The notes beneath the pieces were generated by a model. It did no database searches, was not told the DNA's origin, and saw only the letters and a list, made by a program, of their open reading frames with translations. The position numbers were made by a program, and so were the translations under genes. From positions 9,191 through 73,190 of the forward strand of contig CACWWC010000008.1 in the NCBI GenBank assembly GCA_902764545.1: DNA of 64,000 nt. The letters are read 5' to 3'. The stretch is from an uncultured Erysipelotrichaceae bacterium. GTDB lineage: Bacteria; Bacillota_I; Bacilli_A; RF39; UBA660. This document shows, piece after piece, positions 4,722-28,346 of the stretch. The first letter of the stretch is position 1. Each line of letters begins with the position of its first letter.

Positions 4722-4750
4722 TTGAAAAGACAAGAAATAATTGCTATACT
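4722..4750 (+). promoter_or_regulatory. sigma-A type promoter heading the TasA-like locus
   Basis: TTGAAA (4722-4727), exact 17-nt spacer, TATACT (4745-4750). About 65-nt leader to the GTG start at 4818. Confidence 0.65.
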
Positions 4751-4817
4751 TTTAATGATACAATGTATAGTCACAAGATGCGAAAGGCTAGGTGGAGCTG
4801 AATGGTGGTGAGATGAG

Positions 4818-6035
4818 GTGGATAATTCTTCTCAGAATGAACAAGCAGAAAAAAGAAGAATTCGCAAAATATGTTTATTAATTGTAATTATAGTCATCAC
4901 TACTGTTGTATTGATTACAGAAACATATGCATGGTTTGTTGGAATTACAACCGTAAATGTTGATCAGTTCACAGTGAGCGTATCAGGAGGAGAAGGATTA
5001 GAGTTCTCACTAAATGCAAGTTCTTGGACAAGTGGAACACTGGCTGTGACACAAAGTGGGGTAAAAAGCGCATATACAAACAATAAAAATAAATGGGAGA
5101 CAACCACAACATTAGATCCAATATCTACAAGTGGAGAAATAAAAAACCCAGGTGCATTAAAACTATTTGGAAAAGGCTCATTAGCATCAACTATGGGAGG
5201 TTATAAATTAATATCATCAGAACTTCCAAATGTCAGCAGCTCGACAATCTCGGAATTAGATGGTTATATTGCCTTTGATTTATTTATTAGAAATGGTAAT
5301 AAAGCTGCCTACATTACAGATTATAACGCAAATGACGATGAAGCAATATATTTAAGCAGAAATTCTAAGGTAGTAATAACTCCGTCAGGAACAAGTGGAG
5401 CAGGAAGCCCGGATTACGGTTTGGAAAATTCAGTTAGAGTTGCATTTGCTCAAATTGGAAGAATTGCAGCAAATGGTGCTACGGCAACAACAGCACAAGG
5501 CATTGTATGTAACCCTGGAACATCAAGTGGTGTGACAAGTTTATGCACAAACGTTGGAACGACGATATGGGAACCAAATGACACAGCTCATAAAGCAAAA
5601 CTCATAAATTATTATAATACAGCATGTAAAAACAAAACAGGTGCTACGAGCTATGGAAGTGGTGCATGTACAACAATTGGAACAGTAAATAATGGTACGG
5701 TAAGCAACTCCGTTTTTGTTCAAACTAACACAGTTCGTACTACAATAGCAGCAACAAATAATGTTGATATATATGATGGCTTGAATGGATATACCTCATC
5801 AATAGGTGATAACAAATTTCTAAAAGCAACAGATACATTTACAGATACAGACAAAAATGCTACGGGAGATGCAAGGCCAGAATTTTTCAAATTAGCAGCA
5901 AATAGTGTTACAAAAGTAAGAGTATATATATACCTAGAGGGACAAGACGTTGATAATTATGATTTAATTACAAAGGGGAAAAAAATAAATATTAAATTTG
6001 GATTTACAAAAGATAAATATGAAATTGGCAGTTGA
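4818..6035 (+). CDS. Expanded TasA/camelysin-like secreted protein with SipW-type signal peptide (paralog A1)
   Basis: GTG start after GGTGGTGAG, with no in-frame ATG before the TM helix. K/R-rich N-terminus and TM helix ending in TYAWF (compare G-T-x-A-Y/W-F in TasA/CalY signals). Paralog motifs YIAFDLFIRN, NSVRVAF, IWEPNDTAH, RVYIYLEGQDVDNYDL, KFGFTKDKYE. Confidence 0.65.
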   Translation: MDNSSQNEQAEKRRIRKICLLIVIIVITTVVLITETYAWFVGITTVNVDQFTVSVSGGEGLEFSLNASSWTSGTLAVTQSGVKSAYTNNKNKWETTTTLDPISTSGEIKNPGALKLFGKGSLASTMGGYKLISSELPNVSSSTISELDGYIAFDLFIRNGNKAAYITDYNANDDEAIYLSRNSKVVITPSGTSGAGSPDYGLENSVRVAFAQIGRIAANGATATTAQGIVCNPGTSSGVTSLCTNVGTTIWEPNDTAHKAKLINYYNTACKNKTGATSYGSGACTTIGTVNNGTVSNSVFVQTNTVRTTIAATNNVDIYDGLNGYTSSIGDNKFLKATDTFTDTDKNATGDARPEFFKLAANSVTKVRVYIYLEGQDVDNYDLITKGKKINIKFGFTKDKYEIGS

Positions 6036-6073
6036 AATATATAGCACAATATTATTATTAAGGTGGTGTAAAA

Positions 6074-7450
6074 ATGGAAAAGAAGGAAGTAACTAAAAAA
6101 AGGTATAATAGAAAGAAACGAAAAAGAGCAATTAAAAAAAGTAAAAAAGTTGTAATAGCAATGGGGCTAACAGCAATAGTACTTGTTGTTGCAACATATG
6201 CATGGTTCATTGGTATAACAACAGTAAATGTTAATCAATTTGAAGTTAATATAGTTACAACAGAAGGTTTGTCAATTTCGTTAGATGGTAAGCACTGGGA
6301 AACAGTTTTAAATGTTACAAAGGGAATTATTGAAGGAACAGACCCAATGGTAATTAATGGGTCAACTTCAGCAAATAAACATCTAAAAGCTGATGGTACA
6401 GACGGTGATTATGGTGAATATCCAGTTGCAAATGGAAACAATGACCATTGGGCAACTGCAGGTGATGATTCATCACATACAGGACTTGAGCCAGTTTCCT
6501 CATCAGGACAGTTAGATTCAACTTCATCACAAGCTAAATTCTATTCAAAAAGTACAATGACAGCTGAAAGAGGCGGATATAAGTTGGCTGCAGGTGATAT
6601 AACATCACCAACTGCAACAGGTTATATTGCTTTTGACATATTCATTAGAAATGCAACAGGATCTGCATATGAAGCGGCCTACAATAAAGACAATGATGAA
6701 GCATTATTTTTAACAGGTGGTTCAAACGTTACATATAATACATCAGGATCAAGTGCAGGAGATGGTATTCAAAATTCAGTACGTGTAGGTTTTTATTCTT
6801 TAGGCAGAGTTGCTGCAACTGGAACAACTGATGCCACAATACAAGGAATTAGTTGTTCAGCATCAACAGGAGTCACAAGTCTATGTAATCTTCAAGAAGG
6901 TGAAGCAGGATCACAAACAGCAGTACCAAGAGGATACAACTGGAATATCTGGGAGCCAAATGATACTGCTCATACAGATAAAGCGATAACTAGATTCAAC
7001 AATGCATGTATAAAAAGAAGTTCAACAGGAGAATATCAACTAACTGGGGATGACAATAAGTGTAAACCTATAGGAGAAGGTGCAAGTGCACAACAGCTTT
7101 CAGATAACACCTATATTAAAACGTTTACAATAAATGATACAATTTCAGCATCTGCAAACCCACCAGCTAATATATATGATGGACTAAATGGATATACAAA
7201 TCCAAAAATGTCATATATTCAAACTTTGACTGATACTGAAAATAGCGCTGAAGATACTAGAAACCCTCTTTTATATATCGCACCATCTAGTATTACAAAA
7301 ATTAGAGTATATATTTATTTAGAAGGACAAGATGTAGACAATTTTGATTTGGCAACGGTTTATCAAACATTGAGATTTGAATTTGGATTTACTAAGGATA
7401 GATATGAAGCAGCTGAAGAAGAAACACCAACCCCTACAACAGGAGAGTAA
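6074..7450 (+). CDS. Expanded TasA/camelysin-like secreted protein with SipW-type signal peptide (paralog A2)
   Basis: AAGGTGGTG RBS. ATYAWFIGITTVNVNQFEV, YIAFDIFIRN, NSVRVGF, IWEPNDTAH, RVYIYLEGQDVDNFDL, FEFGFTKDRYE. Acidic/Pro-Thr tail. Confidence 0.65.
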   Translation: MEKKEVTKKRYNRKKRKRAIKKSKKVVIAMGLTAIVLVVATYAWFIGITTVNVNQFEVNIVTTEGLSISLDGKHWETVLNVTKGIIEGTDPMVINGSTSANKHLKADGTDGDYGEYPVANGNNDHWATAGDDSSHTGLEPVSSSGQLDSTSSQAKFYSKSTMTAERGGYKLAAGDITSPTATGYIAFDIFIRNATGSAYEAAYNKDNDEALFLTGGSNVTYNTSGSSAGDGIQNSVRVGFYSLGRVAATGTTDATIQGISCSASTGVTSLCNLQEGEAGSQTAVPRGYNWNIWEPNDTAHTDKAITRFNNACIKRSSTGEYQLTGDDNKCKPIGEGASAQQLSDNTYIKTFTINDTISASANPPANIYDGLNGYTNPKMSYIQTLTDTENSAEDTRNPLLYIAPSSITKIRVYIYLEGQDVDNFDLATVYQTLRFEFGFTKDRYEAAEEETPTPTTGE

Positions 7451-7469
7451 GAGGAACATTATAATTTAG

Positions 7470-8501: not shown

Positions 8502-8515
8502 GGATGTGAATATAA

Positions 8516-8674
8516 ATGGATAATAAGGGGAAAGTAACATATAAATTTGAATTAAAAGATCTTACATATTTAGAATTATATGAAGTATATAAAGAAATGA
8601 TTGAGTTTGTATCTTTTTTAACAAAGACAAGAGACACAGCGGAAGTTGTAAAAGAAGAAAAAGAGGGGTCTTAA
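8516..8674 (+). CDS. Possible 52-aa cytoplasmic mini-protein (below ORF-track threshold)
   Basis: Own reading: ATG 8516, MDNKGKVTYKFELKDLTYLELYEVYKEMIEFVSFLTKTRDTAEVVKEEKEGS, stop 8672-8674. AAGGA lies 11 nt upstream. Fills the only gap between A3 and the next gene and ends 3 nt before its ATG. Confidence 0.35.
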   Translation: MDNKGKVTYKFELKDLTYLELYEVYKEMIEFVSFLTKTRDTAEVVKEEKEGS

Positions 8675-8677
8675 TTC

Positions 8678-10291: not shown

Positions 10292-10305
10292 TAAAGGAAT
10301 TACAT

Positions 10306-13380: not shown

Positions 13381-13394
13381 TGAAAGGAGTAAAA

Positions 13395-13946: not shown

Positions 13947-13960
13947 AGGATGTGATAGAA

Positions 13961-15907: not shown

Positions 15908-17863
15908 ATGAAAAAAATACTATTTTCAAAACAAAGTATTATTATATCTATGACTATTTACCTAATGATGATATGTTTTTTTTCAATACTAGTTATTAGC
16001 AAAAATAACTATGGTGTAACACAATTTGGAAATAGATTTTTTATAAGTGCATCATCTAATAATAAGCTATATGGATATAAAGAAGGAGATCTAATTGAAA
16101 TAGAAAAAAAGAACATTAGTGAACTGCATGATGGTGATAATGTTTATATCTATAAAATGCAAGAAAATGAAAAAAAAATAGATATAATCAATTCCCAGGT
16201 ACAACAAGTACATGCTGAATATCCAAACAGTTATGTAATATTAAAAAATGACAACTACCGCTGGGAAGAAAAGTATATTGTTGGGATATCAAGAAATATA
16301 TACCCTAAAATGGGATACGTAATGACGGCTCTAACATCAAGTTGGGTATTTTTTATATTATTTTTTATCCCTGCAGTAATCATTTTTATATATGAAATCT
16401 ACACTCTATTTAATGAATTAAAAAAACTTAAAAAAAACAATATTAGTATAGAAAAGGAAGATGAAAAAAAAGAAATCAATCAACAAGAAAACAAAATACT
16501 AAATAATAACACTCAACCTATTAACCAACGGTTTAATATTGAGTCTCAAAAGTTAATAAGTGAAAAAGAAAACAATATTGGTGATAATATCATGGACGAA
16601 CCAATTATTATTATCCCCAATATAAAAGAAAAAGGTGACTATATAACAGATGAAAACATTGAAGATGAGCTAAGTACTATTACAATTAGTGATGAATTAA
16701 ATAAAGAAAATGAAAGTGAACCAGAAGAAAAAACTAATAATAATAAAACTGATAATGAAGATAGTCAAGAAGTGAATTCAGATGAATCTAGTAATAACAT
16801 AAAAACAGAAAATGAGCCAATAGTTATAGGAAAAGGTATTAAAAATTTTATTTTAAAAATACTAGAATTAAAAAAGTATGAAATATTTGATATTTTATCA
16901 ATTATTAATAATGCGAAAAATCAAACGTTTCCACAATCGGTATTAAAAAATATTATTTCAACATATGTAATGGATAAATATATTCAGCCAATTGATTATA
17001 ATGAAGAAGATTTTAAAAATAAAAATAAAATTCTTATAGAAAAAATAGAAAAATATGCATCTAAAAAAAGAAATCTCGATTCAACTCAAAAAAAAGAGCT
17101 CACAGAAACGTTATTATTCTATAATAAACTAAAAGAGGATTATAGTAACTTAAATAAAGAAATTACATCATTTATTACATTTGAATCAGAAGATGATAAA
17201 AAAATAATTGTAGACTGTATAACAGAAAAAGGTAAAAGCTACATAAAATTAAGAAAAGCGTTTACAGAAAGAATTTCAGCATCAAAAATGTTTCAACTTA
17301 TCGTAAGTGACACGATAATAAAAAAAGTCTATAATACACAGTTAAAGTCAAATATTAAATTTAGTAAAATATTTAGTGAATATGTTATTGATAAATCGTA
17401 TAGCCAATCAGTTGTACTAGAAAATTTAGAAGAAGTTCTTTTGAAATTGGTAGGATCTATGCTTATAAAGGAATTATTTAATGGTGATTATGAAAAACAG
17501 TACATTATTCACTTTAATGAAACACTATATAAGAAGGAAAGAAAAATTAACAATTTTATAGATAATTTCAATGATCCTTTTTCTCAGAAAAAAATATTAA
17601 TATTAATTAATGCTGATAATATAAAAAAGAATAAAAATATTTTGGATAAATTAAAAAATCAAGGATTTAATTTTGTCATTCAGCTACCAAAGAAGGATCT
17701 TATGAATGTTGAATTTGACAGAAAAATTCTAAACATAGCAGAATACATAATAATTATTGGTAATTTAACCGAAGGAGAAAAAAAGACATTAATACCCGTA
17801 AGTATGATTCCAAAGGTATATTGTATTAATGAGGCCATTGACAGTGAGGTGATTAAAGCATGA
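15908..17863 (+). CDS. Bitopic membrane protein: SipW-like ectodomain lacking the canonical catalytic motifs, plus ~470-aa cytoplasmic domain (protein G)
   Basis: TM1, then FGNRFF...EGDLIEIEKK...GDNVYIY...NDNYRWEEKYIVG aligns by eye to the SipW-like J/M proteins but lacks the GSM and THR contexts. TM2, acidic linker, then a large domain of unknown function. Stop overlaps the next start (ATGA). Confidence 0.6.
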   Translation: MKKILFSKQSIIISMTIYLMMICFFSILVISKNNYGVTQFGNRFFISASSNNKLYGYKEGDLIEIEKKNISELHDGDNVYIYKMQENEKKIDIINSQVQQVHAEYPNSYVILKNDNYRWEEKYIVGISRNIYPKMGYVMTALTSSWVFFILFFIPAVIIFIYEIYTLFNELKKLKKNNISIEKEDEKKEINQQENKILNNNTQPINQRFNIESQKLISEKENNIGDNIMDEPIIIIPNIKEKGDYITDENIEDELSTITISDELNKENESEPEEKTNNNKTDNEDSQEVNSDESSNNIKTENEPIVIGKGIKNFILKILELKKYEIFDILSIINNAKNQTFPQSVLKNIISTYVMDKYIQPIDYNEEDFKNKNKILIEKIEKYASKKRNLDSTQKKELTETLLFYNKLKEDYSNLNKEITSFITFESEDDKKIIVDCITEKGKSYIKLRKAFTERISASKMFQLIVSDTIIKKVYNTQLKSNIKFSKIFSEYVIDKSYSQSVVLENLEEVLLKLVGSMLIKELFNGDYEKQYIIHFNETLYKKERKINNFIDNFNDPFSQKKILILINADNIKKNKNILDKLKNQGFNFVIQLPKKDLMNVEFDRKILNIAEYIIIIGNLTEGEKKTLIPVSMIPKVYCINEAIDSEVIKA

Positions 17864-19419
17864 CAATTTTTAGGTTTCTATATGAAATATTATCTGTACT
17901 CTTTCAAGGTGTAATATACATATTTAAAGGATTATTTAATGGAATAAAAACAATTTTTTCTTTTGGAGACTATAAGAAAATCATTGATTTCTATTCAAAA
18001 GAATTAAATATAAGCGAATGGATACTAGTAACAATCTTAATTGTGGTATTAATTTTGATAGTAGGTTTAATTGCTTATATATTATATTACTTATTAAGAA
18101 AGTATATAATATTGAAAAAGAAATTGGTAAACCAAGAGTCACTGCTTGAAGAAATAAATACATTAAATGATCAGGTTGAAGGACTAGTTAAAGAAAATGA
18201 AAAAATAGCAGAAATATATTCTGGAATTACACCAAATTCTAATAATGGAAAGATAGGAGGCGCTAATGTTAATCCTATAAATCCAAATGAGCCACAAGTT
18301 GAAGGAGAAGAAGTAGAACAAGAAGAAGAGGTTGCAGATGAAAACATAAGATTCCCACAATTGTATAGAATTGATAAATTAAATAAAAAGACAAAAATAG
18401 TAAACTACAACAATACACAAACGTTGCCAGAATTGGTAGACGACTTTAGATGCTTTTCTGCAAGTCAATTACATCTATACTATAATGTAGAAATGATTCG
18501 TGTATTCTTCGGTGGACTAGCATGTGGTAAAATGTTAATATTCCAAGGTATTTCTGGTACAGGAAAAACATCCCTTGCATATGCATGGAGCAAATTTAAT
18601 AAATCGGACCCATGTATAGCATCAGTGCAACCTTCATGGCGTGATAGAACCGATTTCTTTGGCTACATGAACGAATTTACGAAAAGATTTAATGAAACAG
18701 GGGCTTTAGTTGAATTATATAGTGCATTATACGATGATAGATGTCACACAATTGTACTAGATGAAATGAATCTGGCACGTGTTGAGTACTATTTCGCAGA
18801 AGTACTATCAATACTTGAAATGCCAAATAGAGCAGAATGGATTGTTAGCCTTGTAACTAACACTGTTGAAAATGATCCAGTTAAACTAAATAATGGTAAA
18901 ATACGATTAAATGGAAATGTATGGTACATAGGAACAATCAATAACGATGATTCAACATTTGCAGTTACTGATAAAGTTTATGATAGAGCAATGCCTATTG
19001 ATATTAATACCAAAATCGATCCATTTGATTGTAGAAACCAAGAGGCCCTAGATTTAAATTCGGTTTATCTTGAATCATTATTTCACAAGGCATGTGAAGA
19101 TTTTCCAATATCTGAAAAAAGTCTTAAAAGCTTAAGTACAGTCGATAGTTTTATGATAACCAACTTTAAAATATCTTTTGGTAATCGTATCATGAAACAA
19201 TTAAACATATTTGTACCGGTATATGTTGCATGTGGAGGAGATGAAGTTGGAGGAATTGACTATTTCGTTGCAAAAAAAATATTACGTAAACTGGAACAAC
19301 AGAATATAGCATATATTCGTGACGCAATTGATCCATTCATAGAAGAATTGAATAGATTATTTGGAAAAGACAAAATGAAAGAATGTATTGAATACGTTAG
19401 TATGTTAAAGAAAGGTTAA
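17860..19419 (+). CDS. Membrane-anchored McrB-like (AAA_5/dynein-related) AAA+ ATPase (protein H)
   Basis: Hydrophobic N-terminus plus TM helix WILVTILIVVLILIVGLIAYILYYLL, coiled coil, acidic linker. Walker A GISGTGKTS (18547-18573). Walker B and downstream IVLDEMNLARVEYYFAEVLSILE (from 18751), a signature I recall from McrB-family ATPases. Confidence 0.7.
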   Translation: MTIFRFLYEILSVLFQGVIYIFKGLFNGIKTIFSFGDYKKIIDFYSKELNISEWILVTILIVVLILIVGLIAYILYYLLRKYIILKKKLVNQESLLEEINTLNDQVEGLVKENEKIAEIYSGITPNSNNGKIGGANVNPINPNEPQVEGEEVEQEEEVADENIRFPQLYRIDKLNKKTKIVNYNNTQTLPELVDDFRCFSASQLHLYYNVEMIRVFFGGLACGKMLIFQGISGTGKTSLAYAWSKFNKSDPCIASVQPSWRDRTDFFGYMNEFTKRFNETGALVELYSALYDDRCHTIVLDEMNLARVEYYFAEVLSILEMPNRAEWIVSLVTNTVENDPVKLNNGKIRLNGNVWYIGTINNDDSTFAVTDKVYDRAMPIDINTKIDPFDCRNQEALDLNSVYLESLFHKACEDFPISEKSLKSLSTVDSFMITNFKISFGNRIMKQLNIFVPVYVACGGDEVGGIDYFVAKKILRKLEQQNIAYIRDAIDPFIEELNRLFGKDKMKECIEYVSMLKKG

Positions 19420-19433
19420 AATAGGTAAATAAT

Positions 19434-20672
19434 ATGGAAAACTATTCATTAAAATATGAAAATCAATCTGATTTGTTTAATGATAAGTTCTTTAAAAATA
19501 TAAATCAAAGAGAACTTCTATCATCAGATTATACAGGATTAATAGTTAGCTTTGATTGGTTTGATTTAATCTTTGGAACTATACCATATGTAAACAATAT
19601 ATTTAATGATTTAAAATCATTCCTAAAGGAAGAAGAAGAAATACTTAAAATAGAAAAGGTTCGTAAAGTTGGACCGCCAACGTTCAAACATCTAGCTAAA
19701 CATACAAACTTTATTCAAGAATATGATGAAGAAAAAAATAAAATAACACCATCTAAACTTCTAAACACGTATAAGGAAGATACATTCAATACCTATGAAA
19801 ATCGTTTTATTTGTACTCTTGTTGATGAGCTGGCAATATTTTTGGAAGATATAAAGAATCAATTAACAGCACATGATACACATAATGAAGATTCATTTAC
19901 GTTTAATAGTAAAACCAAAGCAGATGGTGAGGAGATTTCATTCAATTTTATGCTAGATGCAAAAACAGACAGGTCGTCAGGCCTTGAAGAATTTGAGGCA
20001 AAATCAGAAATTGTAATGAATAATGTTAAGTCTTGGAGAGACAGTTTACTATATAAAACTCTAAAAAAAGAAAAAGCACCTGCAGTATCAGATCCAATTA
20101 AAAGAACTAATGTAATTTTAAAAAATCCAAACTTTCAAATGGCAGCTAATTTATGGGACTTTATTCACAACTTTAGTATAGATGCACATACCATAGAAAA
20201 CAATAGAGATGTATACAATCAATTACCAACAGTTTTCAATGATAAAGTTAATAATACTTTTTTATGTTTTTACTACATTATGAAATATACATGTGCAAAG
20301 AATAATTATCAAAAAGATATATATAACAAAGAATTAAATAAACTATTTTTGAAAGATATAAAAGAGAATATAAGATCACTTGCTAATGGAGATGATGCGT
20401 TAACAAAAGAAGATCTTGTAAATTTAGTAACATCAGAATATGATATCGTTAAAAAAGAAAAAGTAGTAGATTATTCAATGGTTGCAAATAAAATTAACAG
20501 TAGCTCAAAGAAATTTATGGATAAAATGGATTCAAGTTTCTTCCAAATAGGTGGAGATGGAGCAACACTTAATATGACACTCGACGAAGAAGAAGATAAT
20601 AAAGAAGAGAAAATCATAGTTGATGATATTGATAAAACATCAAGCAACTCAGGAGATGAAGAAAATGATTAA
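19434..20672 (+). CDS. Cytoplasmic partner protein, possibly DUF2357/McrC-like (protein I)
   Basis: No TM helix. NTYENRFICTLVDEL resembles the conserved core of DUF2357 McrC-like partners (memory-based). ADGEEISFNFMLDAK (LDAK at 19953-19964) could be a D...D-x-K nuclease remnant. Acidic tail. 14 nt after H, and overlaps J by 8 nt. Confidence 0.45.
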   Translation: MENYSLKYENQSDLFNDKFFKNINQRELLSSDYTGLIVSFDWFDLIFGTIPYVNNIFNDLKSFLKEEEEILKIEKVRKVGPPTFKHLAKHTNFIQEYDEEKNKITPSKLLNTYKEDTFNTYENRFICTLVDELAIFLEDIKNQLTAHDTHNEDSFTFNSKTKADGEEISFNFMLDAKTDRSSGLEEFEAKSEIVMNNVKSWRDSLLYKTLKKEKAPAVSDPIKRTNVILKNPNFQMAANLWDFIHNFSIDAHTIENNRDVYNQLPTVFNDKVNNTFLCFYYIMKYTCAKNNYQKDIYNKELNKLFLKDIKENIRSLANGDDALTKEDLVNLVTSEYDIVKKEKVVDYSMVANKINSSSKKFMDKMDSSFFQIGGDGATLNMTLDEEEDNKEEKIIVDDIDKTSSNSGDEEND

Positions 20673-21444
20673 AAATATTTTAAAAATAATAATGAAAATA
20701 TTAAAAATAGCATTAATTATAATAATTGTTTTATTCGCATCATTTGTATTACTACAACGTTTTTCCAACAATAACACATCCATATTTGGATATAGAATGT
20801 TTGCAGTTGTAACAGGTTCAATGGAACCAGTATATAGTGTTGGCGATGTTATACTATGTAAGGAAGTTGATACTAATAAATTAAAAGTTGGAGATGATGT
20901 TACATATTTAGGTAAAGAAGGCACTTTTAAAGATAAAGTCATTACACATAGATTAAAAAACATCACAGAAAAAGATGGAAAAAAGATATTTTACACACAG
21001 GGAGTTGCAACTAACAATATCGATCCACCTATAGAAGCAAGTCAGATATATGGTAAGGTATCAAGAAAATTATTAATTTTATCAGCATTTCACAGTTATT
21101 CTAGTACTAGCATTGGTTTTTTCCTATGTGTAATAATACCTATAATGTTATTAGTTGGAACCGAAGTAGTACAAACGATGCTTGAAAAACATGAAGAACA
21201 GCATGAAAAACATAATGAAATACAACAAAACAGCCAACAAAACAATTATACAACAGAGCAATTAAAACAAGAATTAGAATCGCTACAACAAATGGTAGAT
21301 GTTCAAAATGAACAATATGAAGCGAGGATAGCAAATAATGCACAAATGCAACCTCAAACTGTAGGAGTAAATAATATGAATGTGCAAGCACAGCCTCAAG
21401 CAGTAGGAGTAAATAGCACAGCCTCAAGCAGTAGGAGTAAATAA
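20665..21444 (+). CDS. SipW-like (ER/archaeal-type, S26B) signal peptidase I with frameshift-truncated Q/P-rich repeat tail (protein J)
   Basis: ATG 20665 lies 9 nt after AGGAG (track start 20620 sits inside the upstream gene). TM helix, VVTGSMEPVYSVGD (Ser box), ITHRL (His box), TQGVATNNID, second TM helix. Tail of 14-aa QPQxxGVNN repeats ends prematurely at a 28-bp duplication. Confidence 0.75.
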   Translation: MIKNILKIIMKILKIALIIIIVLFASFVLLQRFSNNNTSIFGYRMFAVVTGSMEPVYSVGDVILCKEVDTNKLKVGDDVTYLGKEGTFKDKVITHRLKNITEKDGKKIFYTQGVATNNIDPPIEASQIYGKVSRKLLILSAFHSYSSTSIGFFLCVIIPIMLLVGTEVVQTMLEKHEEQHEKHNEIQQNSQQNNYTTEQLKQELESLQQMVDVQNEQYEARIANNAQMQPQTVGVNNMNVQAQPQAVGVNSTASSSRSK

Positions 21445-21619
21445 TATAAGTGCACAAGTGCAACCTCAAACTGTAGGAGTAAATGGTATAAATGCACAAA
21501 TGCAACCTCAAACTGTAGGAGTATATAATATAAATGCACAGGTGCAACCCCAAGCAGTAGGAGTAAATAATATAAGTGCACAAGAGCAACCCCAAGCAGA
21601 AATAGACAGTAGTAAATAA
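21340..21619 (+). repeat. 42-bp (14-codon) tandem coding repeat array, about 6 units, interrupted by a 28-bp duplication
   Basis: Units such as GCACAAATGCAACCTCAAACTGTAGGAGTAAATAATATGAAT. After 21416 the array continues in the +1 frame to a TAA at 21617-21619. Confidence 0.9.
21388..21443 (+). repeat. Perfect 28-bp tandem duplication causing a frameshift
   Basis: GCACAGCCTCAAGCAGTAGGAGTAAATA occurs at 21388-21415 and again at 21416-21443. 28 is not a multiple of 3, and the stop appears at 21442-21444. Confidence 0.9.
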
Positions 21620-21676
21620 AATAGAGATAATCATTTACAGGGATTATAAACTTTGGTGGTAAAAGGAAGTGATAGT

Positions 21677-23002
21677 ATGAAACTGACTGAAAGAATGAAG
21701 TCTAAGTTAAGAAAAGTCAACTTTACATCAGTTGCATTTTTTGCTGTTTCCGTAATTTCTATCACTTTCGCATGGTTAGCATACAGTAATACTATTGCAA
21801 CCAATTTGGATGTTGATATTAAAAGATGGGATATCAATATAACAACTGGAAACACTGAAATAACCAATGAGTATGATATTAATGTTGACTCATTTTATCC
21901 AGGAATGGATGATTATAGTGACTCATTTACAATAAGAAATAACGGTGATTTAGCAGCCAAGATAGATTATAATATTTCATATTTCAGATTATTTGATCAA
22001 GAAATACCAACAAATAATTTAACATTTTATGAATTGCAAAGAGACTACCCATTTAAAATATCACTAGATTATGATACAAGATATTTAGGAATTAATGATA
22101 CAGCAACATTTAGCATTTCATGTGAATGGCCATTGGACTCCGGTGATGATGCAGCAGATACTTTATATGGAAATATGGCATCAGAGTTTTATGCTCAAGA
22201 ACAACAGATAAAAGCAAATAACCCATCATATGAAATAAGAAAAGGCCTAGAATTGAAAATCGAAATTGTAGTAAGTCAATATATTGATGAGACAAACTCA
22301 TTTGCGACTGACTCTTGGGACACTATTCAACTGGCAGTAGAAAAAGGAGATACAAGCAAATATAGTGTTGGAGCCACAAAAAATGTAAGAGTGGGAAACA
22401 AAAACCTTAAAGTAAAAATTGTAAATAAATCAGCACCAACATCATGTAATGGGGATTCATTTTCACAAACAGCATGTGGCTTTGTTTTAGAATTTGAAAA
22501 TGTTATTGAAGAAAAAAAGATGAATTCTTCAAATACAACTAACGGAGGATGGCCAAATAGTGAATTATATGAGTATTTGCACGGTGACTTTTTCTCAACC
22601 AAATTACCATATGAACTGAGAAAAGTAGTAGCAACAACACGTGTTGTTTCTGGGCATAACTCAAATGAAACAACAAATTATGTAACTTATGATAAATTAT
22701 ATTTGTTTTCCAAAAAAGAATATTATGGAGTAAGTGCACAAGATACCGCAGCAAACTCCACTAGGCAGATTGATTGGTATGTTGGTATGTCATCTACACC
22801 AATATATAATAGTGGAAGCCTTGTTGGACATGCCTACTTAAAAATGAAAAAGCTCGATTCATTAAACAACCCAAAAACATATTGGTTTCGTTCGGTAAAT
22901 GGTACACAATTGTTTGATGCGGTATATAGTAGTTCAATTTATTCTCCAAGAGCGGCAAATGAACCAAATGTTTGGTTTGCTCCTGCTTTTAGAATCACAT
23001 AA
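21677..23002 (+). CDS. Secreted fusion: TasA-like N-terminal domain with SipW-type signal plus DUF6273-like C-terminal domain (protein K)
   Basis: ATG 21677 after AAAGGAAGTGA. TM helix ending ITFAWLAYS. FYPGMDDYSDSFTIRNNGDLAAKIDY (TasA-like strand). The C-terminal half from about 22310 (GGWPNSELYEYLHGDFFSTKLPYELRKVV) resembles the W..S.lR.wLN-type DUF6273 domain. Confidence 0.6.
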   Translation: MKLTERMKSKLRKVNFTSVAFFAVSVISITFAWLAYSNTIATNLDVDIKRWDINITTGNTEITNEYDINVDSFYPGMDDYSDSFTIRNNGDLAAKIDYNISYFRLFDQEIPTNNLTFYELQRDYPFKISLDYDTRYLGINDTATFSISCEWPLDSGDDAADTLYGNMASEFYAQEQQIKANNPSYEIRKGLELKIEIVVSQYIDETNSFATDSWDTIQLAVEKGDTSKYSVGATKNVRVGNKNLKVKIVNKSAPTSCNGDSFSQTACGFVLEFENVIEEKKMNSSNTTNGGWPNSELYEYLHGDFFSTKLPYELRKVVATTRVVSGHNSNETTNYVTYDKLYLFSKKEYYGVSAQDTAANSTRQIDWYVGMSSTPIYNSGSLVGHAYLKMKKLDSLNNPKTYWFRSVNGTQLFDAVYSSSIYSPRAANEPNVWFAPAFRIT

Positions 23003-23011
23003 TTAAAGCTA

Positions 23012-23044
23012 AAAGTTAGACACCAAAGGTGTTTAACTTTTTAT
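23012..23044 (+). terminator. Rho-independent terminator
   Basis: AAAGTTAGACACC-AAA-GGTGTTTAACTTT 13-bp stem (one G-U pair) followed by TTTTTAT. Confidence 0.8.
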
Positions 23045-23100
23045 ATGTCATGACTTAAACTGATATTAAAACTATCATTATAAATTATAAATACCAGCTA

Positions 23101-23130
23101 TTTACAATTTGATTTCGAGTGTGCTATAAT
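23101..23130 (+). promoter_or_regulatory. sigma-A type promoter
   Basis: TTTACA (23101-23106), 18-nt spacer, TATAAT (23125-23130). It covers the track ATG at 23129, which supports the downstream start at 23162. Confidence 0.55.
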
Positions 23131-23161
23131 GATAATTGATAAAAAGGATAGAGGTATAACT

Positions 23162-24196
23162 ATGAAGAAGGTATTACGAATCATTCGAAATATTATTTTT
23201 GGCGTTATTTTTGTTGTGTATCTCTCAATAATCATTTGCGTAAGTACTTTGGTTTTAAATCGTAATGATTATGGATATACAGAGTTTGGAAATAAAGCAT
23301 TAATAGATATTAAAGAAAATACAGGAAATTATTTAAAAGGACAACTAGTAATAGTTGAAAAAAAGATTATTGATAACTTGAAAGCGGGCGATGAAGTCTT
23401 TGTATATGAGACAAACCAACAAGAAAAAACAGTAAAAGTGGTTTCTTCAACTATAAAAGAAATTAATAAGGAAGAAACTACCCCATATATAACATTAGAT
23501 GTAGATAATACAGCCTGGGGACAGGATTATATTGCTGGACAAAGCACAAAAATGTATGAATCTATAGGGGGCATACTAACATTTGTTGAGTCTAAATGGA
23601 TATTCTTTGTAATATTTATTATTCCTTGCTTTTTTATCTTATTATATGAGATTTATTCTGTAATTATTGTCATAAAATTCGATGGTGATGAAGCAATACT
23701 AGAAAATCCTAATGTTATCAGTGGTGATCAAAAAGATAAGGTGGATGATATTTCTGTATTGATGAGTGAAATAACTAATTTGAAATCTCAGCTAAATCAA
23801 AATGCCCAGCCTATTATGAATCAAAACTTAACTCAGCAATCAATGCAACCACAAACTATAGGAATTAATAGTGCGAATGCACAAGTACAACCACAAGCAG
23901 CAGGAGTAAATAATATAAATGCACAGGTGCAACCACAAGCAGCAGGAGTAAATAATATAAATGCACAGGTGCAACCCCAAGCAGCAGGAGTGAATAATAT
24001 AAATGCACAAGCGCAGCCCCAAGTTGGAGGAGTAAATAATATAAATGCACAAATGCAGCCCCAAGTTGGAGGAGTAGATAATATAAATGCACAGGTGCAA
24101 ACATCACAGAATACAAATATTGCTAATTCAAATTCAGAACAGCCACAAATTATTCAGACATCAGCCCAAACACTTGATTCACAAAATAATCAATAG
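23162..24196 (+). CDS. Bitopic membrane protein: SipW-like ectodomain lacking catalytic Ser and His, plus Q/P-rich 14-aa repeat tail (protein L)
   Basis: ATG 23162 after AAGGATAGAGG. FGNKALIDIKENTGNYLKGQLVIVEKK...AGDEVFVY...VDNTAWGQDYIAG aligns to the SipW fold, but GSM and THR are absent. Second TM helix. Tail AQVQPQAAGVNNIN x ~6. Confidence 0.65.
   Translation: MKKVLRIIRNIIFGVIFVVYLSIIICVSTLVLNRNDYGYTEFGNKALIDIKENTGNYLKGQLVIVEKKIIDNLKAGDEVFVYETNQQEKTVKVVSSTIKEINKEETTPYITLDVDNTAWGQDYIAGQSTKMYESIGGILTFVESKWIFFVIFIIPCFFILLYEIYSVIIVIKFDGDEAILENPNVISGDQKDKVDDISVLMSEITNLKSQLNQNAQPIMNQNLTQQSMQPQTIGINSANAQVQPQAAGVNNINAQVQPQAAGVNNINAQVQPQAAGVNNINAQAQPQVGGVNNINAQMQPQVGGVDNINAQVQTSQNTNIANSNSEQPQIIQTSAQTLDSQNNQ
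23837..24100 (+). repeat. 42-bp tandem coding repeat array (~6.3 units), homologous to the array at 21340-21619
   Basis: Units at 23879-23920, 23921-23962, 23963-24004, 24005-24046 and 24047-24088, e.g. GCACAGGTGCAACCACAAGCAGCAGGAGTAAATAATATAAAT. Confidence 0.9.
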
Positions 24197-24248
24197 AATA
24201 ATCAATTTAGCTGGTAAATAATACTATAAATAATAAGAAGGTGGTTTG

Positions 24249-24959
24249 ATGGCAAAGAAAATAGTTAATCTGATATTGAACATTTCAATTGTTTGCGCTT
24301 CAATAATTTTATTTGTTACCATCTTTTTAGATATTCAAACGACAGTATTAAAAAAAACATATAAATCATTTTTTGGATATTCTCTTTTTGAAATAAAAAC
24401 AGGAAGCATGAGCAAAACGATTAAAATAGGAGACTGGATATTAGTAAAAAATACCAAAGATGTTGACCTAAATGATATCATAACATATGAACAAAATGGT
24501 AATTTTATAACACATAGAGTTATACAAAAATATCAAGGAAACATTACTACGAAGGGGGATTCCAATAATACTATAGATAAACCTATAACTAATACGCAGG
24601 TTGTTGGCAAAGTAATCAAGGTATTACCAAAATTTGGTATAATAAAAAGTGTACTTTTAAATAGTGAAGTATTGATTCCATTTATTATTACAATATTTAT
24701 TATTTGTTTAATAATTGATGATAAAAATAATAAAAATGAATCATATATAAATAGATTTAAATCTTTATTTAAAAAAAGAGATAAAAATATAAATAATAGA
24801 ATTAAGGACATACCAATTCCTCAGAAAAATGATGAATCAATGACAACTATTTTAAGTAAAGTAGAAATTGATAATAATAATGAGGTTTATAGCAGATTGA
24901 AGGAAACAAAAAATGAAGAAGAGGATGATGATATTCCAAAAATAATCAAAATCATATGA
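24249..24959 (+). CDS. SipW-like (ER/archaeal-type, S26B) signal peptidase I, canonical motifs (protein M)
   Basis: ATG 24249 after GAAGGTGG (track TTG 24246). TM helix, IKTGSMSKTIKIGD (Ser box), ITHRVI (His box), TTKGDSNNTIDKP (GDxN..D box), C-terminal TM helix and K/N/E-rich tail. Confidence 0.8.
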   Translation: MAKKIVNLILNISIVCASIILFVTIFLDIQTTVLKKTYKSFFGYSLFEIKTGSMSKTIKIGDWILVKNTKDVDLNDIITYEQNGNFITHRVIQKYQGNITTKGDSNNTIDKPITNTQVVGKVIKVLPKFGIIKSVLLNSEVLIPFIITIFIICLIIDDKNNKNESYINRFKSLFKKRDKNINNRIKDIPIPQKNDESMTTILSKVEIDNNNEVYSRLKETKNEEEDDDIPKIIKII

Positions 24960-24978
24960 AACAGAGAGGGATTATTTC

Positions 24979-26175
24979 ATGAATAAAAAAGGAAAAAAAA
25001 GAATGCGAAGATTAATGATTTTATTCATAATGATTCTACTCACTTTATCTATATTGTTAGTTGGAACATATGCATGGTTTATTGGATTAAGAACAGTAGA
25101 TGTTTCAGAATTTAGCGTTACCATAACAGGAGTTGATGGGTTAGAAATATCTCTAGATGGTGAAAATTGGAAGATAGAAGGTGAGCCTTTACATATCAAT
25201 TCAAGTACAATCATTAATACAACATCCACAACGGATGATCATGCATATTCAGGGCATAAAAATATATGGCCAAGTGATGGGTTAGTACCGTTATCAACCA
25301 ATGGATTAATGGATGCGACAAACAGTAGATTAATACTATATGAAAAGACCGGATTGCCACCATCACCAGGAGGCTATGGAATAATATCAAACAGACTAGA
25401 TAACACTGGAACAGACGAAGCAGACGGATATGTCGCATTTGACTTGTTTCTTAAAAATGGAAAAGGTTCATCATACAATGAAACGTATGATCCAAATGCA
25501 GATGAAGATATTTATTTGACAAGCAACTCATATGCTAACAGTACACCAAGTGGTAGTAGTGAAGAAGCTTATGGAATTGCTAACTCAATAAGGATAGGTT
25601 TTTTCCAGATAGGACGAATAAAATCAAGCGGATATAGTTCATCAATATTAACTGGAATAACATGTAGTGGAGGGGAACATATTACAACAACTTGTACCAA
25701 TAGTACAAATTTAGACGAAAGAAGGGCCAAAACATGGAACATATGGGAGCCAAATGATTCAACACACGAAAGTAATTTAGTTCAACTTTTCAATAGAATA
25801 TGTAAGAAAAGAAGTGCAACGGGAGCCTACCTAGAAACCTCTTGTGATACTCTGACAGCTACAAGTAGTAATTTAACCTATGCAATAAATCAACCAATTA
25901 CTTCAACAGATCAAGTAGATGTTTATGATGGAAATAATGGGTACACTTCAGCAAAACTCACAGAAATGAATACATATAAAACAAATGACGCTGCAAATTA
26001 TGCAAGTGATAAAAAACAACTATTAAAAATTGCTGGAAATAGTGTAACAAAAATTAGAGTATACATATGGTTAGAAGGGCAAGACGTTGATAACTATGAT
26101 TTAATTGTCAATGATGCAAATGTGGCAATTAAATTTGGCTTTACAAAAGATAAATATGGTATTTCAACTACGTAA
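24979..26175 (+). CDS. Expanded TasA/camelysin-like secreted protein with SipW-type signal peptide (paralog A4)
   Basis: GTYAWFIGLRTVDVSEFSV, YVAFDLFLKNGKG, NSIRIGF, IWEPNDSTH, RVYIWLEGQDVDNYDL, KFGFTKDKYG. Confidence 0.65.
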   Translation: MNKKGKKRMRRLMILFIMILLTLSILLVGTYAWFIGLRTVDVSEFSVTITGVDGLEISLDGENWKIEGEPLHINSSTIINTTSTTDDHAYSGHKNIWPSDGLVPLSTNGLMDATNSRLILYEKTGLPPSPGGYGIISNRLDNTGTDEADGYVAFDLFLKNGKGSSYNETYDPNADEDIYLTSNSYANSTPSGSSEEAYGIANSIRIGFFQIGRIKSSGYSSSILTGITCSGGEHITTTCTNSTNLDERRAKTWNIWEPNDSTHESNLVQLFNRICKKRSATGAYLETSCDTLTATSSNLTYAINQPITSTDQVDVYDGNNGYTSAKLTEMNTYKTNDAANYASDKKQLLKIAGNSVTKIRVYIWLEGQDVDNYDLIVNDANVAIKFGFTKDKYGISTT

Positions 26176-26191
26176 ATAGGATGTGTATAAT

Positions 26192-26890
26192 ATGAATGGT
26201 GATATAAAAACGACTGCGGCGAAGTTACGGAAAAGGAAAAGAAACTTTAAAATAGCCTGTGTCTTACTAGTTATACTTATTATATTAATAGTTGCAGTAT
26301 ATGCAGCAGTTAGTTTTATATATAATGGATACTATTTTTCTATAACATTAGACAAAAATTTATATCTTAAGAATAAAGTTGTTATATATGATGATCCAAA
26401 ATACAAGGTATATAGAAGTGTTATGCAGGTTGAGTCATTAGACTTTTTTGATAATATATCAGAAAAGTGGCTGCCTGATAGTTTAGATAATGCAGGAGGT
26501 AGTCATAATGGGGAAAGTTATCTTGCATACACGTTCTTTATTGAGAATATGGGAGATGATGTTGTTGACTATTATGATGAATTAATTATCGATGATGTTG
26601 TAAAAAATGTAGACGAAGCGATACGTTTTAAGGTATACTATGATGGGAAGGATAAATTATATGCAAAAAAAAGCATTGATGGTACCCCAGAAAAAGGAAC
26701 AATTGCCTTTAAAGATGAAAATACTGTTTTAAGGCAGAAAGTAACAAATTTTGCTCCAGGTGAAATACATAGATATACAGTAGTAATGTGGGTTGAAGGA
26801 AATGATCTTGAATGTACTAATAATATTTTAGGTGGGGAATTAAAAGTACATTACGATTTTAAATCATATCATAAAGAAGGTAGGAAGTGA
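26192..26890 (+). CDS. Small membrane-anchored or secreted TasA-like accessory protein (protein O)
   Basis: ATG 26192 lies 10 nt after TAGGA (track GTG 26183). TM helix with VYAAVSF. YTFFIENMGDDVVDYY and RYTVVMWVEGNDLEC share the paralog strands. The stop overlaps the track GTG of the next gene. Confidence 0.55.
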   Translation: MNGDIKTTAAKLRKRKRNFKIACVLLVILIILIVAVYAAVSFIYNGYYFSITLDKNLYLKNKVVIYDDPKYKVYRSVMQVESLDFFDNISEKWLPDSLDNAGGSHNGESYLAYTFFIENMGDDVVDYYDELIIDDVVKNVDEAIRFKVYYDGKDKLYAKKSIDGTPEKGTIAFKDENTVLRQKVTNFAPGEIHRYTVVMWVEGNDLECTNNILGGELKVHYDFKSYHKEGRK

Positions 26891-26895
26891 TTAAT

Positions 26896-28296
26896 ATGTA
26901 TAATAATAATGATGAAGATATAGTAGAAGTGGAATATACTGAAGAAGATATTAAAAGAAAAAATAGAAGAGTATTTAAGATGATTACAGTTTCAGGACTT
27001 ACGTTAGTCGTACTTATAGTCGCAACATATGCATGGTTTATAGGTATAACAACAGTTAAAGTAAATGCATTTCAGGTTAATGTAGAGACATTTAAAGGAT
27101 TACAAATTTCATTTGACGCATCATCTTGGAGTGATAGTGTATCAATAACTGGAGATACAACATCTGATAATGCATATAATGCAACAAATAGAAGTGTTAA
27201 TAACCATTGGTTAGATTATAAAAACCCAAGTGATACAACAGAGGGATATAAAGGACTAGTACCAATATCTAGTGCAGGAGAATTTTCAACAACAGGGCAT
27301 TTAAAATTATTTTCTAATGCAAGTATCAACGCTATCACAGGTGGATATAGAATAAGAACCGAAAAAATATTAAATGAAGCATCTGAACAAGCTCAAGGAT
27401 TTGATGGAACAACAACATCACCAGAAAAAGGGCAATATATAACTTTTGACTTATATTTAAAAAATACTACTAACACTCAGGGAACATTACCAAATGCATC
27501 AGCGTATACGCCAGACGAAACAGAAGCAGTATATTTAACTACGAACTCATCAGTTACACTTCATGCAGAAGAAGGTAAAAATGATGACGACGGGTTAGAA
27601 AATTCTTTAAGAGTTGGATTTTATCAGGTTGCGTATGCTCCATTGGGGACTACTGAAGCTAAACTTAGAACAATGAACTGTACATCAGTTGCAGCTGATA
27701 GTATTGTAGGAACATGTACAACATCTGGAACAACAGGTAATAGAGGTTCCGCATGGAATATCTGGGAACCAAATGATATGACTCATGCTGATAAAGCAAT
27801 AAGTAACTTTAATCGTCTATGTAGATTGAGAACAGGAGCGGATACATATACTGCACCTGTTGCAGATGATTTATCAACAAAATGTAAAGCAGATGGAACA
27901 AATTTATTTGCTAATAATCAATATGTAACTACATATGGAGTAAGAGCAGCAATTGGAAATTCAGATAAAGTTAATATGTATGATGGAATCAATACATATA
28001 TGACAACAGTAGGAACTGATAAATTCCTTAACGCAGTTACAACATTAAGAGAATCACAAAATGTAATAAATACATCAGATCTATATGCAACAGATAGGTC
28101 ATCATTAATTAAGCTAGAGCCAAATAGTATTACAAAAATTAGAGTTTATGTATGGTTAGAAGGACAAGATCTTGATAACCTAGACTATGTTGGAGAAACA
28201 CAAAACTTACTTATTAATATGGGATTCACTAAAGATATATATGAAGAAGATGTTAACGCAACACCATCTCCTACAACAACTACAGAAGAGCCATAA
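26896..28296 (+). CDS. Expanded TasA/camelysin-like secreted protein with SipW-type signal peptide (paralog A5)
   Basis: ATG 26896 lies 8 nt after AGGAAG (track GTG 26887). ATYAWFIGITTVKVNAFQV, YITFDLYLKNTTN, NSLRVGF, IWEPNDMTH, RVYVWLEGQDLDNLDY, MGFTKDIYE. Pro/Thr tail. Confidence 0.65.
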   Translation: MYNNNDEDIVEVEYTEEDIKRKNRRVFKMITVSGLTLVVLIVATYAWFIGITTVKVNAFQVNVETFKGLQISFDASSWSDSVSITGDTTSDNAYNATNRSVNNHWLDYKNPSDTTEGYKGLVPISSAGEFSTTGHLKLFSNASINAITGGYRIRTEKILNEASEQAQGFDGTTTSPEKGQYITFDLYLKNTTNTQGTLPNASAYTPDETEAVYLTTNSSVTLHAEEGKNDDDGLENSLRVGFYQVAYAPLGTTEAKLRTMNCTSVAADSIVGTCTTSGTTGNRGSAWNIWEPNDMTHADKAISNFNRLCRLRTGADTYTAPVADDLSTKCKADGTNLFANNQYVTTYGVRAAIGNSDKVNMYDGINTYMTTVGTDKFLNAVTTLRESQNVINTSDLYATDRSSLIKLEPNSITKIRVYVWLEGQDLDNLDYVGETQNLLINMGFTKDIYEEDVNATPSPTTTTEEP

Positions 28297-28308
28297 TTAT
28301 AAGATAGC

Positions 28309-28346
28309 AAATATCATTTCAATTAGAAGTGATATTTTTCTTTTAT
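28309..28346 (+). terminator. Rho-independent terminator closing the TasA-like locus
   Basis: AAATATCATTTC-AATTA-GAAGTGATATTT 12-bp stem (one G-U pair) followed by a TTCTTTTATT tail. Confidence 0.7.

Follow-up and report, generated by a model that had tools for sequence, protein, structure and literature searches.

Several described systems come close to the locus reported here. Bell et al. (eLife 2024, PMC11090510) found an FtsB-like-McrB GTPase together with an McrC homologue and signal peptidases and named the combination CoCoPALM, for "pilus assembly linked to McrBC"; it was given two sentences, with the analysis deferred to a forthcoming paper. This naming independently ties the GTPase clade to signal peptidases and to pilus assembly. 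Among the papers searched, no later one used the name, and the supplementary tables (text) of the same paper, which treats the wider clade CoCoNuT, hold no CoCoPALM entry. Other relatives are the TasA operons for biofilm fibers, tapA-sipW-tasA of Bacillus and sipW-tasA-calY of Bacillus cereus. We analyzed a stretch of 64,000 nucleotides (the window) from an uncultured Erysipelotrichaceae bacterium (assembly GCA_902764545.1, contig CACWWC010000008.1, positions 9,191 to 73,190), in which 19 genes, all on the plus strand, run without interruption over 23.5 kb, from position 4818 to 28296. An original prediction, made from the letters of the window, had called this locus an undescribed surface-fiber assembly system. 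The association of GTPase, McrC and signal peptidase had already been named CoCoPALM, so that part of the claim to novelty fell; it was left uncharacterized there (PMC11090510), and that part stood. We take the locus to be a full-size representative of CoCoPALM, a class named yet uncharacterized, and its substrate families and accessory components appear to have no previous report. In our reading, which we give about an even chance of being right, the locus exports, processes and assembles a heteromeric surface fiber or matrix that a GTPase module is coupled to from the other side of the membrane.

The GTPase, listed with all other features in Table 1, has the motifs GISGTGKTS (Walker A), LDEMN (Walker B) and INNDDS (signature). 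It matched McrB chains of the PDB, including 6hz4/6ut6, at E values of 1e-5 to 4e-5, in alignments that ran through all three motifs, and the NCBIfam McrB model at 1.4e-6. Among 34 GTPase sequences, residues N361, N362, D363 and D364 were invariant, as were Walker A and Walker B. This N-N-D-D reads as NxD with a second D, although an ungapped HMMER alignment to the NTAD of Escherichia coli also permits NxxD; read as NxD, it fits the CoCoPALM signature, described as NxD "usually followed by E or a second D" (PMC11090510). The N-terminus, as read from the sequence, consists of a transmembrane (TM) helix and a heptad-rich segment, with no DNA-binding domain. In the McrC-like partner encoded next to it, only the N-terminal DUF2357 domain was recognized. 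Conservation ended at about residue 260, with a poorly conserved C-terminal half; no nuclease match was found in Pfam, and 41 aligned sequences showed no conserved PD-(D/E)xK motif past that point. A canonical McrBC restriction system would have a nuclease and a DNA-binding domain; the locus has neither and is therefore not one. The membrane-anchored McrB-like ATPase with a partner, as originally proposed, was thus recovered as a TM/coiled-coil McrB-like nucleoside triphosphatase (NTPase) with a DUF2357 neighbor.

The locus also encodes two SipW-type signal peptidases (20620 and 24246), both of which scored above the TIGR02228 cutoff of 51.85 bits. The alignment showed that both retain the Ser of the GSM motif, the His of the THR motif and the GD..N..D motif, and on this basis they are catalytically intact and of the endoplasmic reticulum (ER)/archaeal type. 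Two further proteins (15908 and 23129) have a TM-barrel-TM layout like that of SipW, with the catalytic Ser and His gone from the alignment; the 15908 protein reached 26 bits on the SipW model, against a cutoff of 190. Both types of pseudo-peptidase are kept in related loci (49 and 24 loci). Two ER-type peptidases and two peptidase-like proteins lacking the catalytic motifs had been predicted, and all four were found as such.

Some relatives (L070 and L073-L076) have three or four SipW-like genes each. In the window, two near-identical arrays of 42-bp tandem repeats (21352-21599 and 23876-24100) encode the 14-amino-acid (aa) unit NAQVQPQAAGVNNI. The pseudo-peptidase at 23129-24196 has the second array as its C-terminal tail. 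The first starts in the tail of the peptidase at 20620-21444 and extends beyond the stop codon of that gene. Here, the frame is shifted by a direct duplication of 28 bp (21387-21443), which is perfect, and the +1 frame reads repeats up to about 21600; therefore, the 209-bp "intergenic gap" is a truncated repeat tail. The duplication is either a real mutation or an assembly error, and the catalytic domain of the peptidase is unaffected by it.

The C-terminal part of the 15908 protein is a domain of 330 aa, which many loci encode separately, in a gene of its own just ahead of the GTPase gene. In three loci (L008, L017 and L027), it was fused to a catalytically intact SipW, again directly upstream of the GTPase. 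These fusions of the 330-aa domain to SipW or pseudo-SipW, next to the GTPase, physically tie the peptidase module to the GTPase neighborhood. The domain had no relatives in Pfam (23 members searched), NCBIfam or the PDB profiles. A degenerate EAL (cyclic di-GMP) domain was suspected from the pattern G-x-F-A-x-x-L-D and was dropped, as Pfam (23 members) and the PDB profile gave no support. Another cytoplasmic protein, of 537 aa, had no match in Pfam, NCBIfam or the PDB. The large cytoplasmic proteins of the original prediction, i.e., the 537-aa protein and the 15908 C-terminus, were both found and were conserved in relatives. A small acidic protein of 52 aa, absent from that prediction, also had no relatives in Pfam, NCBIfam or the PDB; genes of 48 to 58 aa occupy the same position in L001, L002 and L003, at 34 to 58% identity. 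Look-ups of cluster members returned only "hypothetical protein" as a name.

Relatives of the GTPase were collected with back-translated GTPase motifs from at least 587 species genomes. Almost all of these are metagenome-assembled genomes (MAGs) of Bacilli, Erysipelotrichaceae, Tenericutes/Mycoplasmatota and Clostridia, from the gut and rumen. The analysis covered 84 related loci, and the 42 loci with full flanks of ±10 kb around the GTPase were used for counting. McrC was present in 42/42 of these loci, SipW in 40/42, B-type secreted proteins (see below) in 38/42 and a pseudo-peptidase or fusion in 33/42. The counts for A-type secreted proteins (at least 20/42), the 235-aa protein C235 (at least 15/42) and the 537-aa protein (at least 14/42) are lower bounds because of the flank limit and a BLAST threshold of 1e-6. 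Some genomes, such as that of L003, had the same gene set in a permuted order, which speaks for selection acting on the set and against its having been inherited as a block. The GTPase gene was the most conserved of the cluster (55 to 57% identity among the 120 clusters listed; A-type proteins, about 45%; B-type proteins, about 30%), and its family comprised 670 representatives at 50% identity (E ≤ 1e-30). Judged from these neighborhoods, one co-conserved unit includes the membrane NTPase together with its partner and the cytoplasmic proteins. We give almost no credence to the idea that an McrBC-like cassette came to lie beside a SipW/TasA-like operon by chance: the general mobility of McrBC cassettes, and nothing more, speaks for it, while McrC and SipW accompany the GTPase at the above frequencies across all these species and SipW is found fused with the cytoplasmic domain encoded beside the GTPase. 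The co-conservation data effectively refute it.

The same data bear on a role in defense, in which the McrBC-derived module would be an immune sensor or effector like CoCoNuT and the SipW-processed proteins would be effectors in the membrane or at the surface, or a phage-exclusion coat, under its control. The AAA+ core of the GTPase matched the PADLOC candidate phage-defense model PDC-M26A (E 1e-30, residues 205-328 only), and the GTPase, with its signature read as NxD, belongs to the NxD branch of McrB, which Bell et al. read as derivatives of Type IV restriction systems (PMC11090510). No other protein of the locus had a PADLOC match, nor did the locus contain a nuclease or a nucleic-acid-binding domain. 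It lies between housekeeping genes with no mobile elements, and the high identity of the GTPase across MAG families, with synteny stable in at least 587 species, is unlike the patchy distribution of defense islands. We therefore consider a defense function improbable. The N-terminal part of the GTPase raises yet another option, namely, that the GTPase is directed to the septum by an FtsB/FtsL-like TM helix and coiled coil, with the secreted proteins making up a structure at the septum, the pole or cell-cell junctions. Bell et al. call this N-domain FtsB-homologous (PMC11090510), and we obtained weak Pfam matches to FtsL (2 of 34 members, best E value of 0.0014) and DivIC (2 of 34, E value of 0.07). 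However, such matches may reflect a generic TM helix with a leucine zipper, and there are no division genes in the neighborhood; a division or contact structure is very improbable in our view.

With a regular expression in which [STGVPK][YFWQ]A had to come after a run of hydrophobic residues, the TasA-type signal motif was found in 11 of the 18 large open reading frames (ORFs) inside the locus and in 0 of the 29 outside it in the window. Five of the eleven proteins, the enlarged paralogs called A-type here, end their signal helix in TYAWF; the endings of the others are PSYARN, GSYALY, SQAKY, SSYARY, TFAWLAY and VYAAV, once each. Every one of these endings, as quoted in the original prediction, was present in the ORF translations. 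The mature TasA chain in PDB entry 8AUR begins with AFNDIK; therefore, the authentic SipW site is G-T-W-A↓A-F (the arrow marks cleavage). The sites of the locus, such as T-Y-A↓W-F and S-Y-A↓R-Y, follow the same P3-P1 pattern with an aromatic P2' residue as the TasA site TWA↓AF, and residues A38, W39 and F40 were invariant in 58 aligned A-type sequences. The predicted pairing of SipW-type signals with adjoining SipW peptidases was thus borne out, with all eleven proteins carrying a signal of the T-[WYF]-A↓x-F type that ends in [ST]-[YFQ]-A. The NCBIfam model of the SipW-cognate signal gave no match at E ≤ 0.1 among 20 locus proteins. The eleven proteins have the signal peptide in common and belong to more than one family.

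Four of them, which we call B-type, are related to one another: hhalign gave a probability of 97% for B210 versus B188, 97% for the N-domain of the dockerin protein versus B188 and 93% for the N-domain of the DUF6273 protein versus B210. The dockerin protein and the DUF6273-like fusion had both been predicted, and Pfam identified both domains. For a comparison with TasA, we used a family alignment of B. subtilis TasA and ten plasmid-borne "TasA family proteins" of the B. cereus group. When the resulting hidden Markov model (HMM) was run with hmmsearch against 4423 ORFs from the window and related loci, the top 13 matches were all B188 orthologues (best E value of 8.9e-6). Eleven of them lay at E values from 9e-6 to 7e-3, and the window's own B188 was at 0.25. 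The alignments span the signal peptide through the hallmark "LKPGD..F.v.N" strand of TasA. In hhalign, B188 matched the TasA family with a probability of 80.6% (E 1.3e-5), the DUF6273-protein N-domain with 42.7% over 138 columns and B210 with 3.6%. An AlphaFold2 (AF2) model of B210, built from its database homologues, had a mean predicted local distance difference test score (pLDDT) of 84. In Foldseek, it matched the TasA fiber chain 8aur_A at rank 2 (E 1.6e-3, probability 0.98), at a low template modeling (TM) score of 0.32-0.34, and also the donor-strand pilin domains of FimG and PapG. The approximately 14 residues that would form the N-terminus after cleavage were predicted to be unstructured (pLDDT 64-69), which is compatible with donor-strand exchange. 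Sequence and profile searches of the PDB with B210 or B188 gave nothing meaningful. With moderate confidence, these profile and model comparisons suggest that the B-type proteins are distant members of the TasA superfamily. Of the eleven "TasA-like" proteins originally proposed, the four B-type proteins thus kept that description, weakly, by the TasA HMM, hhalign and the Foldseek match to 8AUR, and the five A-type proteins lost it.

The orientation of the B210 gene varies. In the window, it is co-directional with and upstream of the peptidase-fusion gene. Most related loci (L005-L084, e.g., L008:14501-15178) have their B210-type gene on the other strand, where it converges with the DUF6273-type gene.

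The A-type proteins form a family of more than 2388 clusters at 90% identity, all unnamed. No Pfam domain covered the body of the family; some homologues carry a C-terminal PF16403, Big_3 (also Big_2) or DUF6273. Their alignment showed conserved cysteine pairs and an invariant C-terminal E-G-x-D-x-D motif. The third protein is in an orthologue group of its own, with 17 orthologues in related loci. An AF2 model (pLDDT 88, predicted TM score of 0.85) had a helix at the N-terminus, and the body after it was entirely beta. In Foldseek, the best match in the PDB was to nodavirus capsids (E 0.8, TM score of about 0.1), and the best E value in BFVD was 0.19, leaving nothing at E < 0.1 in either database. 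The jelly-roll capsid matches were nonsignificant (E ≥ 0.19, TM score of about 0.1), and we therefore claim neither a capsid-like nor a TasA-like fold for the A-type. In the jelly-roll comparison of monomers proposed in the original prediction, B210 thus gave a TasA match with a low TM score and the A-type gave none. Against the TasA-family alignment, hhalign gave the A-type a probability of 0.8%, with the signal peptide region alone aligned, and sequence and profile searches of the PDB gave nothing meaningful. By these comparisons, the A-type proteins are a new family that has only the signal peptide in common with TasA. Elsewhere in the window (50597-54163, plus strand), a 1188-aa surface protein combines a glucosaminidase with Bact_surface_Ig-like (PF16403) and Big_3 domains, the last two of which are also found C-terminally on many A-type homologues elsewhere.

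Two more secreted or membrane proteins complete the set. The C235 gene nearly always adjoins an A-type gene in related loci, and C235 resembled the A-type in hhalign (probability 67%) in the C-terminal EG-x-D-x-(D/E)C strand region only. The 1024-aa giant is conserved over its N-terminal 200 aa or so, with a variable, Ig-like remainder, and the signal region is its sole similarity to the other secreted families of the locus. It had been described as a GLUG protein, which was not confirmed: Pfam detected no GLUG in it or in four orthologues.

Such proteins could also act independently at the surface or in the matrix, as adhesins, carbohydrate-binding proteins or an S-layer-like coat, and share a dedicated SipW, the GTPase, McrC and cytoplasmic proteins serving to regulate or quality-control their export and not to power polymerization. 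The accessory domains are adhesin- or docking-like (dockerin and DUF6273 in the locus; PF16403, Big_3 and Big_2 in homologues), the A-type fold matches no known pilin, and the giant has Ig-like domains. Still, we think a coat or adhesin set unlikely. Five A-type and four B-type paralogs stand side by side with strongly conserved post-cleavage N-termini, and the B-type proteins are similar to TasA and to donor-strand subunits of the Fim type, a pattern that is typical of heteropolymer subunits.

In the fiber model that we infer for cleavage, polymerization into a filament and the role of GTP hydrolysis, the eleven proteins would enter the membrane by means of a basic tail at the N-terminus and a hydrophobic helix ending in [ST]-[YF]-A↓x-[FYL]. 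The two active SipW peptidases would cut after [YF]-A and expose the conserved new N-terminus, which in the four B-type proteins would be the flexible extension suited to donor-strand insertion into a neighbor. The five A-type proteins, beta-rich, disulfide-containing and with their invariant acidic EGxDxD motif, would be the likely bulk subunits, and the dockerin, DUF6273 and giant proteins the likely tip, adaptor or adhesin subunits. On the cytoplasmic side, the TM/coiled-coil-anchored GTPase would work with the nuclease-less McrC-like activator, and the partners of this pair probably include the 330-aa domain that is fused to a (pseudo)peptidase, the 537-aa protein and the 52-aa protein. 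Such a membrane platform could couple GTP hydrolysis to the peptidase/pseudo-peptidase complex and thereby gate or drive the release and polymerization of subunits, or set their place and time. An "energized" appendage machine, as originally proposed, would be one form of this. More tentatively, and with more doubt than belief, we propose that an McrBC-derived membrane GTPase motor, through its (pseudo)signal-peptidase partners, drives or gates the extraction and donor-strand polymerization of TasA-like and A-type subunits. This would be a new class of Gram-positive pilus or fiber assembly machine dependent on nucleoside triphosphates (NTPs), with a restriction-enzyme motor exapted for making surface structures, and it would be widespread in uncultured gut Bacilli, Erysipelotrichales and "Tenericutes"-like lineages.

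Several observations weigh against the fiber model. Donor-strand polymerization of the TasA and chaperone-usher types needs, to our knowledge, no NTP, and a GTPase is therefore without precedent in such assembly. The putative major subunits, the A-type proteins, had no similarity to any known fiber subunit. The TM score of the B210-TasA match is low, and the top Foldseek match of B210 was an unrelated MAM-domain protein. Pfam Peptidase_M73 matched none of the 20 proteins at E ≤ 0.01 and none of 41 B210 orthologues at E ≤ 1; of the profile checks that the original prediction had put forward, those with established models failed, and the TasA-family HMM and hhalign found the B-type weakly. Lastly, PDC-M26A was the closest library match of the GTPase core, and the wider clade of the GTPase, CoCoNuT, is predicted to be immune (PMC11090510).

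Table 1. Features of the locus in the window (↓, predicted signal cleavage site)
Feature	Position	Strand	Details
Promoter-like site	4722..4750	+	TTGAAA, spacer of 17 nt, TATACT with extended -10 TG (TGcTATACT); 10/12 matches
A-type secreted protein 1, 405 aa	4818..6035	+	TYA↓WF; beta-rich, conserved Cys pairs, C-terminal EGQDVDNYD motif
A-type secreted protein 2, 458 aa	6074..7450	+	TYA↓WF; 42% identity to protein 1
A-type secreted protein 3, 343 aa	7470..8501	+	24% identity to protein 1; divergent, shorter subtype
Acidic cytoplasmic protein, 52 aa	8516..8674	+	between the third A-type gene and the 537-aa gene
Helical cytoplasmic protein, 537 aa	8678..10291	+	without signal peptide or TM helix; conserved in 26 loci
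Secreted giant, 1024 aa	10306..13380	+	signal ending PSYA↓RN
B-type secreted protein B188, 188 aa	13380..13946	+	signal ending GSYA↓LY; L-x-PGD strand
B-type N-domain with C-terminal type I dockerin, 355 aa	13952..15019	+	signal SQA↓KY; Dockerin_1 5.5e-10
B-type secreted protein B210, 210 aa	15181..15813	+	signal ending SSYA↓RY
Fusion protein	15908..17863	+	N-terminal pseudo-SipW (190 aa), acidic linker, ~330-aa cytoplasmic domain
Membrane-anchored McrB-like GTPase	17860..19419	+	TM helix ~54-78, coiled coil ~85-120, AAA+ core
McrC-like partner, 412 aa	19434..20672	+	DUF2357 N-domain only, 2.3e-13 (Pfam, above cutoff)
Active SipW-type signal peptidase	20620..21444	+	likely start ATG 20665; TIGR02228 88.7 bits
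B-type N-domain with DUF6273	21653..23002	+	signal ending TFA↓WL; DUF6273 9e-11
Pseudo-SipW with cytoplasmic Q/P/N-rich tail	23129..24196	+	tail of 14-aa repeats; related loci have 49-50 orthologues
Second active SipW-type signal peptidase	24246..24959	+	TIGR02228 62.4 bits; Peptidase_S24 (Pfam)
A-type secreted protein 4, 398 aa	24979..26175	+	TYA↓WF
Membrane or secreted protein C235, 235 aa	26183..26890	+	helix ending VYA↓AV
A-type secreted protein 5, 469 aa	26887..28296	+	TYA↓WF
AT-rich hairpin, then U-tract	28309..28346	+	free energy of -12.4 kcal/mol, z -2.6; weak intrinsic-terminator candidate

The 19 genes comprise 18 ORFs of at least 188 aa and the conserved 52-aa ORF. About 21 genes on one strand had been predicted; the strand and the ORF coordinates were right, and the count was too high. 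A consensus promoter and a terminator had also been placed at the two ends, and both sequences are present. The window has a GC content of about 28%, and promoter-like sites of this kind are frequent in such AT-rich DNA (5 observed versus 3.5 expected), so the upstream site is weak evidence of a promoter. The downstream hairpin failed the GC criterion and was not called by the terminator scan. Rfam and tRNA scans of the window gave no matches.

We found no transposase, integrase or other mobile-element gene flanking the locus, in agreement with the original prediction; inspection of the flanks showed a sortase-dependent adhesin upstream and pcrA-ligA downstream, followed by genes for a GGDEF protein and of the gatCAB type. 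The upstream genes (1849-3760, plus strand) form a separate sortase system with a 430-aa adhesin of thioester-domain (TED)/SpaA fold, which has a VPNTA sorting signal, a TM helix and a basic tail and whose gene is overlapped by the sortase gene (3107-3760). We rejected this sortase as a member of the locus, its partner being the TED-SpaA adhesin with the VPNTA signal; no protein of the locus has a C-terminal sorting signal. Between the sortase gene and the promoter-like site, a 285-aa multi-pass membrane protein (3788-4645, plus strand) matched no family, and none of the 84 related loci has a homologue of it; it is therefore probably outside the conserved system. A few kilobases past pcrA and ligA, two proteins with GGDEF diguanylate cyclase domains are encoded (33582-34577 and 40207-42249, plus strand), and a link to the regulation of a surface structure is possible.

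If the fiber model is correct, the locus would represent a pathway of fiber or matrix assembly distinct from sortase, type IV/Tad and chaperone-usher pili and from NTP-independent TasA, in which a restriction-type GTPase motor was recruited to envelope biogenesis. For a little-understood section of the microbiota, with at least 587 species-level genomes, it would also be a first functional entry point to the cell surface and to adhesion to host or particles. Large "hypothetical" families would gain a context, from the A-type (more than 2388 clusters) and the GTPase (670 at 50% identity) to the B-type, 537-aa, 330-aa and 52-aa families. Probable substrates and accessory parts are now added to what the CoCoPALM naming left out.

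Among known systems, the locus is neither a sortase locus nor a type IV pilus locus, nor a strict Peptidase_M73 operon, and no Pfam match to type IV pilus families was found among its proteins. Archaeal bundling pili (AbpA) and cannulae (CanA) are reportedly built from beta-sandwich subunits that are processed by signal peptidase I and form TasA-like donor-strand filaments, and these systems are said to have no NTPase module. By analogy, donor-strand self-assembly, possibly with Ca-binding acidic motifs, is plausible for this locus, although the A-type model had no Foldseek match to the AbpA or CanA structures. As in the TasA operons, a dedicated archaeal-type peptidase adjoins substrates of the T-[WYF]-A↓x-F type, and the B-type proteins appear to share with TasA the N-terminal region, the LKPGD strand and, weakly, the fold. 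Unlike those operons, the locus has 19 genes rather than 3, a main family, the A-type, that seems unrelated to TasA, no Peptidase_M73 match and no identified TapA homologue, and it adds two pseudo-peptidases, the membrane GTPase, the McrC-like protein and cytoplasmic proteins. It is thus more elaborate than tapA-sipW-tasA, as had been predicted, with 19 co-conserved genes that include an NTPase, its partner and cytoplasmic proteins. With the canonical McrBC system of E. coli K-12, it has in common an AAA+ GTPase core and a DUF2357 activator gene immediately downstream. It differs in having a TM helix and coiled coil in place of the DNA-binding N-domain, an McrC homologue without the PD-(D/E)xK nuclease and a setting among secretion and processing genes. 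As in CoCoPALM, an McrB-like GTPase, a DUF2357 McrC homologue and genes of the signal peptidase family occur together, and the N-terminal TM helix and coiled coil of the GTPase may correspond to the FtsB-like fusion, with weak FtsL and DivIC matches. Relative to the short published description of CoCoPALM, as far as that text goes, the A- and B-type substrates, the pseudo-peptidases, the fusions of peptidases to the 330-aa domain, the cytoplasmic proteins of 537 and 52 aa and the size of the locus, with its 19 genes, are additions.

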